Sequence record: OZ035743.1
Strand: one strand, 5' to 3'
Source: Phapecoctavirus DIJ07P1
Length of the DNA stretch: 64,000 nucleotides
Of the stretch, positions 9,131-54,495 are shown in pieces (positions within the stretch are counted from its first letter, which is position 1; every line of letters begins with the position of its first letter). A program made the position numbers and the translations under genes. A model generated the notes under the pieces. It was given only the letters and a program-made list of their open reading frames with translations, was not told where the DNA came from and made no database searches.

Positions 9131-9924
9131 TATTCCTCCTTTCTAATGTTCTCCAGAACCCACTGAAGTTCTTTTAAACTTAAACTTCTTACTCCCGCAG
9201 TTTTACTAGCTTCAGCTTTAAGTAACGGGTAAGCCTCAATGATACGCGTTTTAAGATCAGAAGTCAAGGCTTTTAAAAAATAGGTAGATGCTTCAGATAA
9301 AGAATCTTCTTCTGATAACACTTTACCTGCACTTGCTCCCGCTCTCCTAACGGCTATATCGTAGTCTTTACTGTTACCTAATACGAATAGTCGATTCTCT
9401 CCTAAAACAACGGGAGAACGCTTCTCGTTGCGTTTAATCCATATCTGGAATACACAAGGAACATCCCAAGGTTCTCCATGAAGAATAAAAGATCCTTTTG
9501 GACATTCTTCTTCGTAAAGAAGATGCATATGGGGATTTAGTTTGTGTGCAAAAAAGATTTTTTGAAATGTGCGAGGCAAGATAAAACAAATACCACCTTC
9601 GTTATCCAGCATTTCAGCACAATGGTTAAAGAATTTAATGGCAAGACTAGCATTTTTTCCAAATGGAGGATTACCGACAAAAGCAGTTACACTACCAACA
9701 GACTCAACAGATTGAGCTAAAAAATCTGCCTCAATACAATCTTCAAACTTAGGGTCAATATCAAAAGAAGTTATGTTTTTAAAACAAGAAGAGAAAGCTC
9801 CTTCTCCCGCAGATGGTTCTACGTAGTTAGCTTCCTCTCCAAAAATTTCTTTGATCTTATCACATAAGAACCCCGCATAAGCGGGGTTAGTGTAATATTG
9901 ATCAAGTGTGTTCAACTTGCTCAA
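9130..9924 (-). CDS. DNA N6-adenine methyltransferase (orphan, no adjacent nuclease recognised)
   Basis: 264 aa; VEPSAGEGAF (AdoMet motif I) and FVGNPPFGK (NPPF catalytic motif). Confidence 0.75.
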   Translation of the reverse strand: MSKLNTLDQYYTNPAYAGFLCDKIKEIFGEEANYVEPSAGEGAFSSCFKNITSFDIDPKFEDCIEADFLAQSVESVGSVTAFVGNPPFGKNASLAIKFFNHCAEMLDNEGGICFILPRTFQKIFFAHKLNPHMHLLYEEECPKGSFILHGEPWDVPCVFQIWIKRNEKRSPVVLGENRLFVLGNSKDYDIAVRRAGASAGKVLSEEDSLSEASTYFLKALTSDLKTRIIEAYPLLKAEASKTAGVRSLSLKELQWVLENIRKEE

Positions 9925-42746: not shown

Positions 42747-44207
42747 GTGCCAAAAATAGTCACTTGGGAACAATATAAAACAGATATAAAACAAGCTTAT
42801 CAAGGTAAGTCTTGGACTGTTGTAGATTATATTGAGCCGTGGAACGGCAATAAAACTAAACTTAGATGCATCTGTGCTCTGCATGGAGAATGGAAAACAA
42901 CAAGCATAAATACCGCTAAACTAGGGAGGGGTTGTCCAGAATGCGGTAGGGAGATTATAAGTAAAGCAGTATCTATAAACAAATCAAAAACCTGGGAGCA
43001 ATATAAAGAAGAAGTGCAAACCACTTACAATCAGGCAGGTAAGTTTTGGACTGTTACAGGATGGCACGGAGAATGGAAAGGATGGAATACTAAACTGGTT
43101 TGTTGTTGTGCTTTACATGGGGAGTGGAGGTCTACTTCTATATCTTCTGCGAAAAACGGGAGTGGATGCAGGAAGTGTATGGGAGAAGCAAACAGAGAAA
43201 GAACATCGATTGCATGGGAGAAACATAAAGAAGAAGTAGAAGAAGCTTATAAAGAAAAACCCTGGATTGTTAGAGGCTATGTGGAACCGTGGAACGGTTC
43301 CCGCACTAAGTTGATTTGTGAGTGTAAGGTTCATGGTCAATGGTGCACTACCACTGTAAACAGTGCTAAACAAGGGACTGGATGCTACAGTTGTCAAAGA
43401 GAAATGACGAAACAAAGGAATACAATGGAGGATAAACAACATGTTGAAGATTTTATAAAAGCTTGTCCTGATAATGTAGAGCGTAAATATTATCGTAGCG
43501 ATAGAGTAGATAGATTAGGTCGTCAGGTTTACTGGATTGTAGAATGTCCTATATGTGCAGAGGATGATTATTGTAAAGAAGGCTTATGCGATAATAAATT
43601 TGAGATGAAGATGAGTCATTTGAAAAGGGGTGGCCTTCCTTGCCGTTGTTCTAAATATTATCATTACACTCCTGAACAATGGGCCTACCGTATGACCAAA
43701 GCTTGCCAGGAACGAGGGGATCAATTTATAGGATTCATTGATAAGGTAAGCAATAACAGCAAGTTTAAATATCTATGTAGGGAGCATGGAGAGCAAACGA
43801 TCACACCTACCGATTATCTCAATGGGAAAGGTTGTCCAGGCTGTAAGAACAGAAATATGCAAGAATTTTACATCAATATTATTCTTGATGAGTACGGAGA
43901 AGACACGGGAGCTTACAAGTTGGGGATTGCAAAGGACAGTGATATCAGGATCAAAGGGCAGAATGCAAACAACAATTACTCTATGCGCCGTATAGCATTG
44001 TTCGATCTGCCGTCCTACCAAGCTTGCAGGGCGTTAGAGAGTAAGCTAAAGTCTAAGACTGATCAGATTCTACCGTCTATTGGCTGTGTAGAACGCTTGC
44101 ACATGAAAGATGGTCATAGTGAAACCTTCCTGCGCGAGGATTTGGCTATCGTCTTAAGTGCTATCAACCAAGCAGGTGGAATAATGAGAGAGGAGGAAAC
44201 ATGTTAG
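42747..44207 (+). CDS. Zinc-ribbon tandem-repeat protein with C-terminal GIY-YIG-like region
   Basis: 486 aa; four tandem ~75-aa repeats (W..YK...W.V..Y.EPWNG..TKL.C.C..HGEW.TTS.N.AK.G.GC..C); C-terminal EFYINIIL...GAYKLGIA. Confidence 0.7.
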   Translation: MPKIVTWEQYKTDIKQAYQGKSWTVVDYIEPWNGNKTKLRCICALHGEWKTTSINTAKLGRGCPECGREIISKAVSINKSKTWEQYKEEVQTTYNQAGKFWTVTGWHGEWKGWNTKLVCCCALHGEWRSTSISSAKNGSGCRKCMGEANRERTSIAWEKHKEEVEEAYKEKPWIVRGYVEPWNGSRTKLICECKVHGQWCTTTVNSAKQGTGCYSCQREMTKQRNTMEDKQHVEDFIKACPDNVERKYYRSDRVDRLGRQVYWIVECPICAEDDYCKEGLCDNKFEMKMSHLKRGGLPCRCSKYYHYTPEQWAYRMTKACQERGDQFIGFIDKVSNNSKFKYLCREHGEQTITPTDYLNGKGCPGCKNRNMQEFYINIILDEYGEDTGAYKLGIAKDSDIRIKGQNANNNYSMRRIALFDLPSYQACRALESKLKSKTDQILPSIGCVERLHMKDGHSETFLREDLAIVLSAINQAGGIMREEETC

Positions 44208-44566
44208 TTGACGTTCAAATTATGCGCAACGAAAGAATGGACTTCTTTGAAGCAGTAGAGAAACATCTGATCAGATGGGACTATGAATTTGTTCCTGCTG
44301 GATGTGGACCAGTAGAGCATTTAGCGGAAGACGACGATGTATACATGATCATTCGTCAAGTGTACCAGACAGACCAGTGTGAAGAAACTCCCGAACTGAT
44401 TTTGTTTGAGTGTAAAGATCTTGCAAAATATTTTGACTATGGCGGAAAAGAGGGTCATAATCTCTCCAGATACAATAAACGTCTACTTATCTTAGACTAC
44501 ATGCGGAACAACAAACACAAACTCATCGACGCAGACGCAGTTTATGGCTACTGGTGGATGGACTAA
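44201..44566 (+). CDS. Hypothetical protein
   Basis: 121-aa ORF. Confidence 0.55.
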   Translation: MLVDVQIMRNERMDFFEAVEKHLIRWDYEFVPAGCGPVEHLAEDDDVYMIIRQVYQTDQCEETPELILFECKDLAKYFDYGGKEGHNLSRYNKRLLILDYMRNNKHKLIDADAVYGYWWMD

Positions 44567-44579
44567 CAAAGGAGAAACT

Positions 44580-44759
44580 ATGGCACGTTTAGCAGATCAT
44601 GAAATCTTTAAACCTATTCTGAACCACTATGATGAACTTAAAGCAGTGTTGGATTGTTATAGAGAGGATGAAGAACGTTTGGAAGTCAATCTTAAGATAG
44701 TTCTGATGAAAGCTTTTCAAGACGGGCAAGCTAAAGTTTTAGAAGGCATGAAAAAATGA
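44580..44759 (+). CDS. Hypothetical small protein
   Basis: Start set at Met after GGAGAAA RBS. Confidence 0.45.
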   Translation: MARLADHEIFKPILNHYDELKAVLDCYREDEERLEVNLKIVLMKAFQDGQAKVLEGMKK

Positions 44760-45298
44760 GAATAACTGATGAATATGTATTCTTCTTTTCACATAAAGAT
44801 GTGTTTAGTAATTGGTATATTGCACCCTTTACAGAAACTGAACCAGGTTACAATGAGACTTTCTGTTGTGTTGAGCAATATATGATGTGGCGTAAGGCTT
44901 TGCTGTTCAAGGATCATGCGATTGCAGCAGCTATCCTTGATCACTCAACTATACGTGACAACGAGAGGAAACAAGCATACTACAAACGTATGGGTCGAGC
45001 GGTATCTGGTTTTAATAATGATATGTGGGAAGAGAACCGTGAGCGTATTGTTATGCGAGGCTTATGCTTGAAATATGTACAGAATCCAGATTTGTATGCA
45101 GACTTACACCTTTACCAATACAAAACGTTTGTTGAAGCAAGTCCTTACGATAAGGTTTACGGTATTGGAATGGGAATGTATGAACCAGGGGTGCTAAACC
45201 CTGCTACCTGGAAAGGGCAGAATCTTTTAGGCAAATATCATAATAAACTGATCGAAATACTTTTCCCAGACAAAATACCGCAAAGACGATATTTGTGA
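44756..45298 (+). CDS. NADAR-domain (YbiA-like, DUF1768) protein
   Basis: 180 aa; VFFFSHKDVFSNWY...CCVEQYMMWRKALLF parallels E. coli YbiA INFYS...FSNF...SEHYFQAQKF. Confidence 0.65.
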   Translation: MRITDEYVFFFSHKDVFSNWYIAPFTETEPGYNETFCCVEQYMMWRKALLFKDHAIAAAILDHSTIRDNERKQAYYKRMGRAVSGFNNDMWEENRERIVMRGLCLKYVQNPDLYADLHLYQYKTFVEASPYDKVYGIGMGMYEPGVLNPATWKGQNLLGKYHNKLIEILFPDKIPQRRYL

Positions 45299-45353
45299 TA
45301 TTTTAACTTTTTTCATTTTTAGAACAAAGGTGTCACTTTGTAGCACAGAAATA

Positions 45354-45380
45354 AGGCTCCTACAGCACCGTAGAGAGCCT
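45354..45380 (+). terminator. Rho-independent terminator
   Basis: aggctc-ctacagcaccgtagag-agcct hairpin followed by gttattttgt. Confidence 0.65.
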
Positions 45381-45540
45381 GTTATTTTGTCCTATACAAA
45401 CCCTTGTCTTTTTCAGTTTGCATCACTAGGATTCGATCTGAGTGGGTTCCTGAAGGTTTACCAATAAGATTAAAGGTTATATCAAATTCCCACTATCTTT
45501 TATCTCAAAAATCCCTCAAATTATTTAAACTTTTTAAGAA

Positions 45541-45717
45541 TTTACAAAAATGAAAGTACAAAAGCAAAATTTAAAGTTTAGGAAAATTATCTTAAAATGT
45601 TAGATACAAAACAAAACTCAAAAGTCAAGGAAAATTTTAAAAATTTTGCGCGCCCACAGTATTTAAAGTTTTTTTGCTTTTACAAAAATGAAAGTACAAA
45701 AGCAAAATTTAAAGTTT
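45541..45717. repeat. 40-bp direct repeat pair in AT-rich intergenic region
   Basis: tttacaaaaatgaaagtacaaaagcaaaatttaaagttta at 45541..45580 and 45678..45717. Confidence 0.8.
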
Positions 45718-45740
45718 ACAAAAATTTTTATGCAGGTGAA

Positions 45741-45846
45741 AATGAGAAGAGTTCTCATATGGAAATGCAAATGATAATGATTCGCATTTAAGTTTATAAA
45801 TGAGATTGATTCTTATTTAATAAGGTAAATGACAATCATTCTCATT
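45741..45846. promoter_or_regulatory. Four tandem ~19-bp palindromes resembling the Fur box
   Basis: aatgagaagagttctcat; aatgataatgattcgcatt; aatgagattgattcttatt; aatgacaatcattctcatt at ~28-bp spacing; last copy matches GATAATGATAATCATTATC at 14/16 aligned positions. Confidence 0.45.
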
Positions 45847-46106
45847 TAGAGAATGACGCGCAGGGGCGGTGTTTGTCTCGCGCTCCCGTGTCCCCTCGCC
45901 ATGTAATAAGAATAACAGATCCAGCCAGGAAAGCAAGCGATTATTTTATCTTTACATTTCTTTACAAATATATAGCACCCAGCCTACCGGCGATCAACCT
46001 TCCAACCAGTGCCCCCTGGTATGTTAGCCCCGCCTTTACGCCGTGGGGTGGCGCTTCCTCTTCTGTATGTAAAACAGTATAAGCCCGATCCCTGGGCTTG
46101 TCAAGA

Positions 46107-46373
46107 TTATTTTTTGTTTTCTTGCCAGGATAGGACACCTAACCAAAAATACATATCGCCCCGCGCCCCTGGTGGTATCTTGCTTTCCCCGCCGCCACTG
46201 CAAGCCCATAGATAACCATTTGCGAACGTATCAAAATGATCTATCTCTTCCACCTTATGATCGCCCAGGTTGAGAACGGTTTCAACCTTTAAGCCCGTTG
46301 CGCTTGCTACCTGGTGCACCGTGCCGCCTTGCCAGCCCAATGAGTGCATAAGGTGTAATGTAGTATTTGTCAT
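46107..46373 (-). CDS. Hypothetical protein in GC-rich island
   Basis: 88-aa ORF; competing ORFs on both strands; weak RBS. Confidence 0.35.
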   Translation of the reverse strand: MTNTTLHLMHSLGWQGGTVHQVASATGLKVETVLNLGDHKVEEIDHFDTFANGYLWACSGGGESKIPPGARGDMYFWLGVLSWQENKK

Positions 46374-46482
46374 GATATCGCCCTTTCTTTGTTGTGCGCC
46401 CTGGTTGGCGCGGTAGAAAGATAATAGCCCTTTTCTTTATATATAGCAAGCAAAAAGAAAATAAAAAAGATTGAAAAATGGT

Positions 46483-46540
46483 TGACGTTAACCAGGCGGC
46501 GGCGTAGTATTCATCTTGTAGGGCGGCAATGGTGCCGCTC
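46483..46540 (+). promoter_or_regulatory. Promoter-leader cassette 1
   Basis: TTGACG-spacer-TAGTAT then tagGGCGGCAATGGTGCCGCtc leader hairpin. Confidence 0.6.
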
Positions 46541-46559
46541 ACTATTTGGAGTTAAGATC

Positions 46560-46757
46560 ATGGCAACATTGCACATTGTGGCGAAAGCTGGACAAATCAA
46601 CGTAGTGGTAAACGGTTTTACTGAGTTCAGTCACCCCCAGGATGATCATGAAACGGTTTTATCTTTCATTGATTCCCTGTTAGAAATGGGAGTCATTACA
46701 GAAGACCAGCACGCTACAAAATGCAAGCGCGTTAATCAAATTGCAGGAATAGAATAA
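46560..46757 (+). CDS. Hypothetical small protein
   Basis: Start set at MATLHIVAK after GGAG RBS. Confidence 0.55.
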   Translation: MATLHIVAKAGQINVVVNGFTEFSHPQDDHETVLSFIDSLLEMGVITEDQHATKCKRVNQIAGIE

Positions 46758-46763
46758 AAAGTA

Positions 46764-46823
46764 TTGACAACAAACAACAACCTGATAAGATGTATCACAT
46801 AGGGCGGCGGAATGGTCCACCGC
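46764..46823 (+). promoter_or_regulatory. Promoter-leader cassette 2
   Basis: TTGACA-16-TAAGAT-gtatcacat-aGGGCGGCGGAATGGTCCACCGC; then cacaacagaagagagattatcatc-ATG. Confidence 0.7.
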
Positions 46824-46848
46824 TCACAACAGAAGAGAGATTATCATC

Positions 46849-47121
46849 ATGGCATCATATAGCGCAACAATGATCGTAGCTGGCACCACTGGTAAACCTA
46901 TGCGCGGTGGCGGATCTTTCGCTAATATCAATATTGACGGGCGTTTATCCCTGGACGCAGCGATCACCGTGGCGCGGGAAACATTTAAGAAAGAATGTAA
47001 ATTCAATAAACAAGATTATCTCGGTTTTGCTATTGAAAAAACCGCGCGCTTTGTTGATTATAAAAGCCCGAAAATGGTTGACACTACATTAAAAGCGCAA
47101 GATGTAGCGTTTTTGCTTTAA
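46849..47121 (+). CDS. Hypothetical small protein
   Basis: 90-aa ORF after cassette 2. Confidence 0.6.
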   Translation: MASYSATMIVAGTTGKPMRGGGSFANINIDGRLSLDAAITVARETFKKECKFNKQDYLGFAIEKTARFVDYKSPKMVDTTLKAQDVAFLL

Positions 47122-47124
47122 GGC

Positions 47125-47180
47125 TTGACATTAACGAATAATTTGTTAATATGTTACATAAAGCGGGAATAGTTCCCGCT
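47125..47180 (+). promoter_or_regulatory. Promoter-leader cassette 3
   Basis: TTGACA-16-TAATAT then GCGGGAATAGTTCCCGC hairpin. Confidence 0.65.
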
Positions 47181-47197
47181 ATTTGTAAGGTGGTAGA

Positions 47198-47455
47198 ATG
47201 TTTTACATCAAATTAAAAGGTCACGTGATCGCGTTCAAAGATAACGCTTTTTACAGATTAGCAAAATATGCGTTAATACATCCCCACTATGTTTATATAA
47301 GGGGGCGTGATGAAATAAATATCTTTGATCAAACAACATGCGAGAACATCGAGATCCGCAAGGTTGGCGTACGTGATTATCGTACATCTTTCTACCCTTG
47401 CAAGGATTCAGCAAGTCTTTTTAAAGTATGCCAATTGTTGAAAAAAGGTGGTTAA
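47198..47455 (+). CDS. Hypothetical small protein
   Basis: 85-aa ORF, RBS AAGGTGG. Confidence 0.6.
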   Translation: MFYIKLKGHVIAFKDNAFYRLAKYALIHPHYVYIRGRDEINIFDQTTCENIEIRKVGVRDYRTSFYPCKDSASLFKVCQLLKKGG

Positions 47456-48014
47456 TATGGGCCGCGAATATGTGATCCAGTCTTGGGTAAAACATGAAGC
47501 AGATGATCCGCGCATCATTCCCGATCATCTTATCGATGAATCCACGGGATATAGTGGTGAGCAAATAGGTAACAGATTAGCACGTAGTAACGGCAACGTA
47601 AAAGCGCGTTATGTGCGCCCTGGTTGGCTGGCAAATGGTAACGCTGATTTATCCAGTGCGGAAGATGCGAGCGACGGCGCGAAAGATAATCCTTTGTACA
47701 AAGTTGATCCAGCTTTTCGTGTCCTGGATGAATACCCCAGCAAGATAGCGGCGCTCGATCAGGCCCTGGAAAGTAAGCGCATCACCTGGACCGCTTACAA
47801 CATGGCAAAAAACGTACTTGATGGTAAATTGATTCAAGCTGAAAGAAAATTAGCCAAAATTGCAGCCATAGCCCAGGAGGAAGACGAGGAGACAACGGAA
47901 GAGGAAGAGTACGAAGAGATCCCGCCGTTGTTGTGTGTTGATGCTTTTCCTGATTATCAGCCGACAGAGGAAGAAAAAAGGATCGCACTAGAAAACTTTG
48001 AAAATAGTCTTTGA
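47448..48014 (+). CDS. Hypothetical acidic protein
   Basis: 188-aa ORF co-transcribed with previous; start 47448 or 47456. Confidence 0.6.
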   Translation: MVNMGREYVIQSWVKHEADDPRIIPDHLIDESTGYSGEQIGNRLARSNGNVKARYVRPGWLANGNADLSSAEDASDGAKDNPLYKVDPAFRVLDEYPSKIAALDQALESKRITWTAYNMAKNVLDGKLIQAERKLAKIAAIAQEEDEETTEEEEYEEIPPLLCVDAFPDYQPTEEEKRIALENFENSL

Positions 48015-52966: not shown

Positions 52967-52993
52967 AAGGGCGCACCAAGCGCCCTTTCTTTT
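52967..52993 (+). terminator. Rho-independent terminator (copy 2, near-identical to 51723..51749)
   Basis: agggcgcaccaagcgccct followed by ttcttttt. Confidence 0.75.
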
Positions 52994-52994
52994 T

Positions 52995-54495
52995 GCCCGA
53001 ACAATGTTGATAGCTTTCGCCTATGAAAAACCGACACAGAACAAAACTGAATAAATCGCGGTATCGAGCTAATCAACCAGCAAACGAATAACCATACCTC
53101 CCAGGGTTACAGGCTGTTAGAGAGCCATTTAGAGCGGTTAAAATCGATCAACAACCAACAACAAACCATCAAAAACACCCTTTTACCTCCTTTCTAGTGC
53201 AATGATAACCATTATCATCTACCCATGATTATCTATGCAATATAAGCGCATAATTATAATGTTGATAATAGTTCGCAACAACTAACCAACAAACAACATA
53301 AAACAATAAGCAAACTAATCATAATCAAAGGAATAATAGCAAGATGATTGATAACGACAAACAATCAAACCATGATGAATACTAAGCAAGATAACGATAA
53401 CACGACAAAACAACCAACTAACGAACAATAACAAACGAAACCATTAAAATAATAACTATTAGCAAAATAGTGCATGAATGAAATCATTACAAAACGAATC
53501 ATTCACAGAGTCATCATTAGCACGCTATGCCGGACACATAGCGAGCTAATAATAAGCCAACTACACCCCAACAATCATAACCATCGGTGACGGTTATTTC
53601 TTGTTACTGCGTAGCTTGCAATAATTGCAAGCGTAATGACGCTTACACTTATTGCGCTGGCTTATTATTAGCATTATATGTAATTACCAAGATCATAACA
53701 TTAGCGCAATAACAATAGTCATTGTGATAATTACAAGATGAGATCATTAGCAAGATGAATAATTGCACGTAGCAACATGAGCGAATAGCGACAGGTTGCA
53801 TAGTGTGCACATAGTGTATAAACATACAAGAAAATAAAGGCTAATCTTTTGGGGGCGAATACTATCGCGTAGCGATATGTTGAGCACCTTCTCTTAAACG
53901 TAAATAAAATCAGAAAATTCTTGATTTATTTTGGCTTTTATGTTAATAAACGTTTAAATAATAATCATTCTCATATAAATAATAGTCTGCTTGTCATGAG
54001 CGGCATTAGTTGACATTGTTCCGTCATATGATGAAGTTGCCAAGCCATTGATAAATAAGTGTTTGTGTGATTTATAATCAGGTGGCCCACCTTGTCGCTA
54101 TGTTGGCATGAGCCTTGCATAAGTCATTGAATACGAATGATAATTATTCTCATTCGCATGATATTTGGGAATTGTCGCTGCGTGGACCTGACGGCCCGAA
54201 AATTCGCGTTAAGCACTTCTTACGTATGCGCCATGATTTTTGCCATATGATATTGATTCTATTAGATATTCTTGCCATTATTGCCATGAAACAGGGTGTG
54301 TCGAAATAATTGCTCCCCGTAGATATTTTGGGTTACTTTTTATACAAGAGTGGGGTGTCAAAAATAATCGGTATATATGGGATAATTGATAGGAATCCCC
54401 TATGATAATTCGATTGTAATTCCCTAAGATTGATCGTATGATGTTGGTGATTGATGATTGCCATGAAAGATGGCTAACGATGAGAGGAGATTGTC
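52995..54495. other. A/C-rich, strand-asymmetric non-coding region (~1.5 kb)
   Basis: No convincing ORF; plus strand dominated by A and C with recurring CAAGATGA / GATAACGA / ATCATTAGC words. Confidence 0.6.
53957..54157. promoter_or_regulatory. Fur-box-like palindromes (second locus)
   Basis: aataataatcattctcat (53957..53974) and cgaatgataattattctcattcg (54135..54157); same motif family as 45741..45846. Confidence 0.45.

Follow-up and report, generated by a model that had tools for sequence, protein, structure and literature searches.

Textbook Fur boxes belong to host promoters and to the cargo genes of temperate phages. The Fur operators of Escherichia coli, such as those of ryhB, gpmA, fhuF, entC and iucA, are palindromes of 9-1-9 / 7-1-7 form, and where they cluster the boxes overlap in a 3- or 6-bp register, 6-bp-overlapping boxes being the classic two-dimer Fur arrangement (Chen et al. 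2007, PMC2189734). On phage DNA, host Fur sites are found as single operators on cargo or prophage promoters in lysogens, as with sitABCD on lambdoid phages and the prophage genes nohA and nohB. The comparison system among virulent phages is repeat region 3 of T5 (Heusterspreute 1987, Wang 2005, Davison 2020), a part of that phage's injection stop signal that contains direct repeats C and palindromes E-J. The locus described here differs from the textbook cases in lying in the non-coding DNA of a virulent phage: it is a phased array of four palindromes, of apparent Fur-box type, in a 64,000-nucleotide stretch of Phapecoctavirus DIJ07P1 (OZ035743.1), which as a whole is called the window below. 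The genus Phapecoctavirus (Stephanstirmvirinae) consists of phAPEC8-like virulent myoviruses with genomes of about 150 kb, and the 1.2 kb around the array share 99.7% identity with Escherichia phages vB_EcoM_3A1_SA_NWU and Ro121lw, as against 98.3% with ESCO13.

The four palindromes lie in a 0.8-kb non-coding gap (45299-46106), with centres at 45750, 45779, 45808 and 45837; by a repeat finder and by reading of the sequence, their start-to-start pitch is exactly 29, 29 and 29 bp. The original prediction, made from the letters of this DNA, had described four inverted repeats of about 19 bp at a spacing of about 28 bp. All four are indeed present, but the units are of 21 bp and the spacing is 29 bp without deviation. 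Each box is a 10-1-10 palindrome, with core arms complementary at 7/9, 7/9, 7/9 and 8/9 positions in boxes 1 to 4, and each is an inverted repeat centred on one base, as the 7-1-7 / 9-1-9 architecture of a Fur box requires; the box centres coincide with the M9 model centre of host Fur sites. A weaker box (centre 45773; 13.9 bits on the matrix described below) overlaps box 2 at a 6-bp shift. This 6-bp register, seen at box 2 (45773/45779) and again at box 4 of ESCO13, recalls the occasional 6-bp-shifted overlaps of the E. coli operators; the dominant inter-box register is 29 bp. Whereas the host clusters consist of overlapping boxes that mostly sit on a sigma-70 promoter, the phage boxes are separate, tiled at 29 bp, and placed in a promoter-poor convergent gap. 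The multi-site stretch as a whole is about as long as the 103-bp extended footprint on the aerobactin iucA operator.

Because the classic Fur consensus is offset from the true dimer site, the boxes were scored with a symmetrised 21-bp matrix built from 17 E. coli K-12 sites that had been footprinted or gel-shifted. The site centres came from Tables 3 and 4 of Chen et al. (2007) and the DNA from NC_000913.3, with coordinate offsets between genome versions checked and corrected by eye. The consensus of these real sites, AAATGATAATAATTATCATTT, closely resembles the phage palindrome; among the host sites, those of ryhB, AATAATAATCATTCTCATT, and gpmA, AATGATAATAATTCTCATT, come close to identity with phage boxes. 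In leave-one-out scoring the 17 real sites average 20.7 bits (range 9.4-28.7), so that the phage boxes, at 20.2-26.6 bits, fall inside the range of experimentally proven Fur sites. From 200 dinucleotide shuffles (maximum 1), 0.045 sites scoring 20 bits or more would be expected in the window, which has seven; for the local 0.8-kb gap the expectation from 2000 shuffles is 0.001, and four were observed. The top eight matrix matches of the window are the four array boxes and sites centred at 53210, 53457, 53966 and 54145. The loose pattern AATGANAATNATTNTCATT, with up to three mismatches, matches nine times in the window against 1.64 expected, a number that 0 of 100 shuffles attained, and three of its extra matches fall in this second non-coding region (53.2-54.15 kb); the exact 19-mer Fur consensus, also with up to three mismatches, gave no match. 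The original prediction had matched the fourth site to the E. coli Fur box at 14 of 16 aligned positions, a count that is correct against AATGATAATCATTATC. The weight-matrix scoring against known Fur boxes that it had suggested as a check strongly supports the Fur-box reading and shows it to have been understated, all four sites scoring like proven operators.

Both the boxes and their phasing recur in other phages. Sensitive BLAST with the region found, besides relatives, T5-like siphoviruses and Vequintavirinae, these matching specifically over the boxes, and a 31-nt stretch around box 2, gaaatgcaaatgataatgattcgcattta, is identical in one T5-like phage. The position of box 1 is kept in ESCO13, Ro121lw and tuntematon. 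Among relatives the letters of the boxes change while the Fur score is kept or raised: at the position of box 3 tuntematon has AAATGAGAATGATTATCATTT, with 29.7 bits as against 21.9 here, and the ESCO13 counterpart of box 4, AAATGATAATCATTCTCATTT, also scores 29.7 bits. Across 14 related loci the last box is fixed relative to a conserved downstream element (-176 to -186), and each locus has between 0 and 4 boxes scoring 15 bits or more, with 5 boxes in one Justusliebigvirus contig. Exact 29-bp spacing is found for 20 of the 35 distinct neighbouring box pairs from four phage groups. A synthetic query of two boxes at this spacing was matched at 1,443 places in 581 phage records, almost all of them from phages of Escherichia, Salmonella, Klebsiella, Cronobacter, Pectobacterium and related hosts (Enterobacterales), and had 0 matches in 5,426 complete E. 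coli genomes. Lineages with arrays include Phapecoctavirus, Justusliebigvirus, Vequintavirinae, the T5-like phages and the jumbo Klebsiella phage Muenster, whose array of five boxes lies within a 20-kb terminal repeat, 0.8 kb from the left end. Fur boxes themselves are well known; what is new is their conserved, phage-specific phased arrangement and its context. Literature searches aimed at Fur boxes in T5 or other virulent phages, or at Fur boxes serving as decoys, gave nothing relevant, though their coverage was incomplete and an earlier description is possible.

Judged from the sequence, host Fur is the parsimonious predicted binder of the array, and it very probably does bind the boxes. 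The original prediction had also offered an alternative in which the sites are operators for a phage dimeric repressor. In the form weighed here, the binder would be a phage-encoded dimeric DNA-binding protein resembling Fur in specificity by chance. Palindromes at a regular pitch would suit such a protein, the phage sites do lean to TGAGAAT over TGATAAT, and a small gene of unknown function adjoins the array. However, a tblastn search with E. coli Fur found no Fur homologue in these phage groups, and the 88-aa product of the adjoining gene is a poor candidate. It has 21 homologues with a very conserved N-terminus, TLHLMHSLGWQGGTVHQVASATGL, and is modelled as a five-helix, all-alpha protein (pLDDT 93.4), with no significant match in PDB or Pfam and none to a DNA-binding fold; the neighbouring proteins likewise match no DNA-binding family. 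The adjacent and co-distributed DNA-binding repressor gene that would be expected of a repressor-operator module was thus not found. The 88-aa protein occurs in 151 phage records (none T5-like and two named for Salmonella among the 40 listed) as against 581 records with arrays, and is on that account not the shared binder. The motif, moreover, is common to four unrelated phage lineages whose common factor is the host, and the TGAGAAT/ATTCTCA half-sites that the phages prefer are themselves frequent in the best host sites (ryhB, gpmA, fhuA and exbB). Taken together, these results make a phage-encoded binder highly improbable.

The array lies at a convergent junction, with a rightward operon stopping to its left (the last gene ends at 45298) and a leftward promoter and the 88-aa gene pointing in from the right. 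The rightward small-gene module and its first rightward promoter start only at about 46482, and a conserved non-coding element, a hairpin at 46081-46099 and the leftward 88-aa gene intervene between that point and the array. This anatomy does not support the further suggestion of the original prediction, that host iron status gates entry into a downstream promoter-array module. The same evidence bears on classical Fur-repressed promoters more generally, in which iron would switch a transcript starting in or beside the array, whether by such gating or through a Fur-controlled small RNA. There are some pointers to this: a weak site, TTTACA-17-GAAAAT (45715-45743), puts its -10 on box 1, the box at 53966 lies just downstream of TTGATT-17-TAATAA (read by eye), and in phage Muenster a TTTACA motif directly precedes one box. 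The -10 at box 1 nevertheless decays to GAGAAT or GGGAAT in close relatives, and a promoter scan together with the relatives' alignment revealed no conserved rightward promoter over the boxes. Three of the four boxes would fall 20-100 nt inside the transcript, and no protein gene lies downstream before the terminator-like hairpin and the opposing gene. The one open reading frame annotated there on the plus strand (45873-46082, in one record) was rejected as a gene, as it matches no PHROG or Pfam family and indels break its frame. Iron-switched promoters of this kind are therefore very unlikely to account for the array.

We favour a reading in which the four palindromes are high-affinity host Fur sites that form an iron-dependent boundary or roadblock at the convergent junction; taken whole, it has about an even chance of being right, while the step in which the Fur-DNA complex acts as a boundary is put forward only tentatively, the balance tipping somewhat against it. 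Incoming or replicating phage DNA would recruit host Fur into an iron-dependent nucleoprotein block, with iron-loaded dimers coating about 110 bp (45740-45856); the coat would be free of gaps because a minimal Fur footprint is about as long as the 29 bp taken up by one box and its linker. The block might halt transcription that crosses the junction, such as leftward transcripts reaching box 4, or alternatively limit the spread of silencing proteins on AT-rich DNA. Together with the four boxes near the genome end discussed below, the array brackets a terminal segment of small early-type genes. A precedent for a boundary role is the anti-silencing of ftnA, where Fur displaces H-NS from upstream sites, so that several boxes away from the core promoter act on silencing; ftnA is a host locus, however, and has no 29-bp phasing. 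The comparisons above make plain that the array matches Fur operators in sequence, that it is phased and conserved, and where it sits in the genome; a boundary explains the fixed pitch together with the fixed position better than any rival.

Several points nevertheless weigh against the boundary. No conserved promoter overlaps the boxes, the overlap at box 1 being with a weak 9/12 match whose -10 is not conserved, and 83% of E. coli Fur clusters do overlap a promoter (Chen et al. 2007). Intrinsic terminators already flank the junction, so that a protein roadblock may be redundant. The 29-bp pitch is not the 6-bp host register, and another protein or a higher-order Fur assembly may therefore act. 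In base preference the phage sites, a set itself chosen with the Fur matrix, favour G over T at position -4 (56% vs 26% in real sites) and C or G at the centre. Finally, a boundary that depends on the iron status of the host has no obvious rationale.

The second box region lies at the physical genome end, which is defined by a direct terminal repeat. A repeat of 328 bp has been reported for Phapecoctavirus Schickermooser (Korf 2019), and that of BME3 (Justusliebigvirus), set by PhageTerm, is 342 bp long; the records of BME3 and WPEC1 begin at the equivalent point, with two boxes. The array sits 8.4 kb inside the right physical end. That it might border a long terminal repeat was considered and rejected, the repeat being of 329 bp and located elsewhere. 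This second region adds four boxes at 53.2-54.15 kb, of which two are inside the terminal repeat (centres 53966, at 25.2 bits, and 54145, at 24.6 bits, 84 and 66 nt from the ends), while the other two follow the terminator at 52967-52987 that closes the small-gene module and are also present in Schickermooser. The terminal segment, with its small, individually promoted genes, is thus bracketed by four boxes on its inner side and two plus two on its outer side. In a census of the genome the boxes scoring 19 bits or more number eight, every one of them in the two non-coding regions, and the other ~86 kb of a close relative contain no site of 16 bits or more.

The number of boxes also bears on a different role, that of a Fur sponge, in which phage DNA, on reaching hundreds of copies by replication, would titrate Fur with its boxes and derepress host iron uptake, RyhB and the alternative reductase nrdHIEF, feeding iron-dependent phage enzymes. 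Each genome has several strong boxes, some of them doubled by the terminal repeats, and among the phage's own genes are those for a glutaredoxin and for both subunits (alpha and beta) of an iron-dependent class Ia ribonucleotide reductase. It is also established, through the FURTA assay, that a multicopy plasmid with one Fur box titrates Fur (cited in Chen et al. 2007). If the arrays were sponges, they would give the phage a DNA-only route to rewiring host iron metabolism. There are only 8 to 10 boxes per genome, however, and a sponge needs neither an exact 29-bp pitch nor a fixed place beside a conserved element at a transcription boundary. T5, moreover, has matching arrays and yet degrades host DNA within minutes, which would make host derepression pointless. 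We consider the sponge unlikely.

Of particular relevance is the comparison with T5 (AY587007), whose strong boxes, with centres at 9482 (21.6 bits), 9586 (29.7 bits) and 9621 (24.1 bits), coincide with features annotated in repeat region 3, namely direct repeats C and palindromes E, G and I. If Fur is the binder, as predicted, these palindromes gain a specific candidate protein identity. The calculated shear point of first-step transfer has been placed at about 9618 in a preprint that discusses DnaA boxes, never Fur, and leaves LexA unmentioned (Davison 2020); a 2023 paper states that experimental work on the functional role of the stop-region sites is lacking, and a 2026 preprint describes the region merely as non-coding and rich in repeats and palindromes. 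The T5 and Phapecoctavirus regions are alike in being non-coding, in their place between convergent units at a distance of 8-10 kb from one end of the genome, in having flanking direct repeats, and in the 29-bp spacing of boxes whose sequences are homologous or convergent (at most 31 nt identical). The combination of hairpin, GAGAAT and Fur box seen in Phapecoctavirus also occurs in the T5-like phages, after their last pre-early gene. The differences are that the T5 region is embedded in a terminal repeat of 10.1 kb, while Phapecoctavirus has one of 329 bp that lies 8 kb from the array, and that T5 has DnaA boxes and the LexA-box-like palindrome D. Neither TTWTNCACA nor a relaxed DnaA box occurs in either Phapecoctavirus non-coding region, and scans of both for DnaA, LexA and IHF patterns gave a single IHF-like match. 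Since DnaA and LexA boxes are absent from the Phapecoctavirus gaps, it is the Fur boxes that the two regions have in common. Palindrome D of T5, TACTGTATAAATATACAGTA (9330-9349), adjoins both the DnaA boxes and the Fur boxes. It agrees at 19/20 positions with TACTGTATATATATACAGTA, which we take to be the LexA-box consensus. With a LexA-like site, DnaA boxes and Fur boxes side by side, the T5 stop region therefore resembles a cluster of sites for host global regulators.

This raises the possibility of a pause in DNA entry equivalent to the T5 stop signal, in which the terminal segment would enter first and halt at the array, with host Fur in the stop or hold complex. The strong T5 boxes surround the shear point, in each of the two phages 8-10 kb of small early-type genes separate the genome end from the array, which has flanking repeats, and the factor proposed for T5, acting at DnaA boxes, has no sites here while Fur boxes are shared. 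Two-step injection is, however, not known for Phapecoctavirus; the terminal repeat is of 329 bp rather than 10 kb, the left terminus of T5 has no strong box close by, and a cytoplasmic protein on DNA that is already internal has no obvious means of halting entry. An entry pause is accordingly quite unlikely. A wider version, just as unlikely in our estimation, would have phased Fur arrays mark the inner border of a terminal early segment in at least four lineages, namely the T5-like, rV5-like and phAPEC8/phi92-like phages and the Alcyoneusvirus jumbo phages, all of them large, virulent and of Enterobacterales; Fur would then be the T5 stop factor, and the myoviruses may stage their entry or early programme likewise, reading iron as they do so. 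Were Fur bound as predicted, several unrelated large phages would be loading a global regulator of the host onto their own DNA, both at the genome termini and where the early region is bordered.

Single Fur sites in prophages provide a further point of comparison, though they lack the phased, non-coding setting of the virulent-phage arrays. We take nohA and nohB to be homologues of the terminase small subunit. Some of the strongest Fur clusters predicted in E. coli K-12 lie in cryptic prophages, upstream of nohA (gel-shifted) and nohB and at ydfK and ynaE (Chen et al. 2007, Table 4), a hint that the placing of Fur sites close to packaging regions may be more widespread among phages.

Table 1. 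Features of the array region and of the genome end in the window (window positions; scores on the E. coli Fur matrix), and spacing of the corresponding boxes in other phages
Feature	Position	Strand	Sequence	Details
Terminator-like hairpin and U-tract closing the rightward operon	45354-45390	+		fold of 45299-45400: -26.5 kcal/mol, z = -3.9
Pair of AT-rich 72-nt direct repeats, 138 bp apart	45517-45588, 45655-45726			family D2, 88% identity
Predicted Fur box 1	45740-45760		AAATGAGAAGAGTTCTCATAT	20.2 bits
Predicted Fur box 2	45769-45789 (45763-45789 including the shifted box)		AAATGATAATGATTCGCATTT	26.6 bits
Predicted Fur box 3	45798-45818		AAATGAGATTGATTCTTATTT	21.9 bits
Predicted Fur box 4	45827-45847		AAATGACAATCATTCTCATTT	24.4 bits
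Hairpin	45836-45856	-	TCATTCTC-n5-GAGAATGA	overlaps right arm of box 4
GC-rich conserved element directly right of the array	45858-45903			many invariant columns in two-subfamily alignment
Conserved non-coding core	45950-46053		tandem CTTTACAnnnCTTTACAAA (45950-45969) and block CTACCGGCGATC...GTTAGCCCCGCCTTTnCGCCGTGGGGTGGCG	
Near-consensus sigma-70 promoter firing toward the array	46104-46076	-	TTGACA-17-TATACT	11/12 consensus matches
88-aa gene pointing at the array	46107-46373	-		annotated in ESCO13 and Ro121lw; PHROG 19316, function unknown
Two more predicted Fur boxes	53200-53467 (centres 53210 and 53457)			20.8 and 19.3 bits
Direct terminal repeat (physical genome ends), 329 bp	53883-54211			first 329 bp of Schickermooser = last 329 bp
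Array of ESCO13, Ro121lw and tuntematon				centre-to-centre 29, 29, 29 bp (matrix scan)
Array of alia (Justusliebigvirus)				centre-to-centre 23, 29, 24 bp (matrix scan)
Array of CR8				centre-to-centre 38, 29, 29 bp (matrix scan)
Array of Mydo				centre-to-centre 29 bp (matrix scan)
Array of T5-like saus47N				centre-to-centre 29 bp (matrix scan)
Array of phiR2-01				centre-to-centre 30, 29 bp (matrix scan)

The elements adjoining the array are summarized in Table 1. The minus-strand hairpin at box 4 is terminator-like for leftward transcripts in the terminator scan (RNA fold -11.4 kcal/mol, z = -3.8), and the GAGAAT within it is an extra Fur-type hexamer; an equivalent box with GAGAAT is present in Vequintavirinae and T5-like phages. 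The leftward promoter has counterparts at the matching place, read by eye, in CR8 (TTGACG-17-CATAAT) and Mydo (TTGCAA-17-TATATT). Its spacer is the hairpin at 46081-46099, which the scan found terminator-like on the minus strand only. The stem-loop of the GC-rich element is weakly stable (-16 kcal/mol, z = -0.3), and an IMG/VR scan for this element gave 3 loci, too few for a substitution-rate test.

The block within the conserved core, which falls within 45930-46104 of the minus strand, is near-invariant across 13 sequences in an alignment spanning two phage subfamilies. One compensatory pair was seen (A-U to G-C in 6 sequences), the consensus fold is weak (covariation term -0.69), and the minus strand folds better than the plus (z = -1.8 vs -0.1); an Rfam search of 44500-47500 at E <=1 matched nothing. 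The core is a candidate for a leftward non-coding RNA or for protein-binding DNA, and a non-coding RNA of about 230 nt may run from the leftward promoter to an end at box 4, which we mention as a lead only. The tandem at its left edge, CTTTACATTT-CTTTACAAAT, has a 10-bp period and is kept in Stephanstirmvirinae and Vequintavirinae, and the same tandem adjoins a Fur box in the jumbo phage Muenster (record position ~1055). It may be likened to tandem TTTACA sites of the OmpR type or to doubled -35 elements.

On the left the array is flanked by the AT-rich 72-nt repeats, and non-homologous direct repeats lie on the matching side of the array in alia, CR8, Mydo and T5 (its DRD repeats). The units elsewhere are tgtcggattYgcaca in T5-like phages and ggtctcgatcg in CR8 and Mydo. 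These array-flanking repeats look like iterons. Beyond them, the rightward operon codes for an ATPase and, within 42747-45298, for an endonuclease of 486 aa that has CapR homology domains and a protein of 180 aa with a NADAR domain, a domain type linked to the metabolism of ADP-ribose.

Two observations concern the database records. In WPEC1 (PV659873, a 161-kb record), positions 1-45000 contain blocks of the window in an order and orientation changed from those of other Phapecoctavirus; this may be a misassembly, and the record, being rearranged, was rejected as evidence of duplication. Secondly, MG065650, MG065656, MG065689 and MG065666, each named "Campylobacter phage" with C. jejuni as host, are near-identical to E. 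coli phages of the Stephanstirmvirinae and Vequintavirinae. All four carry enterobacterial Fur arrays, and on both grounds their C. jejuni host labels are probably wrong.

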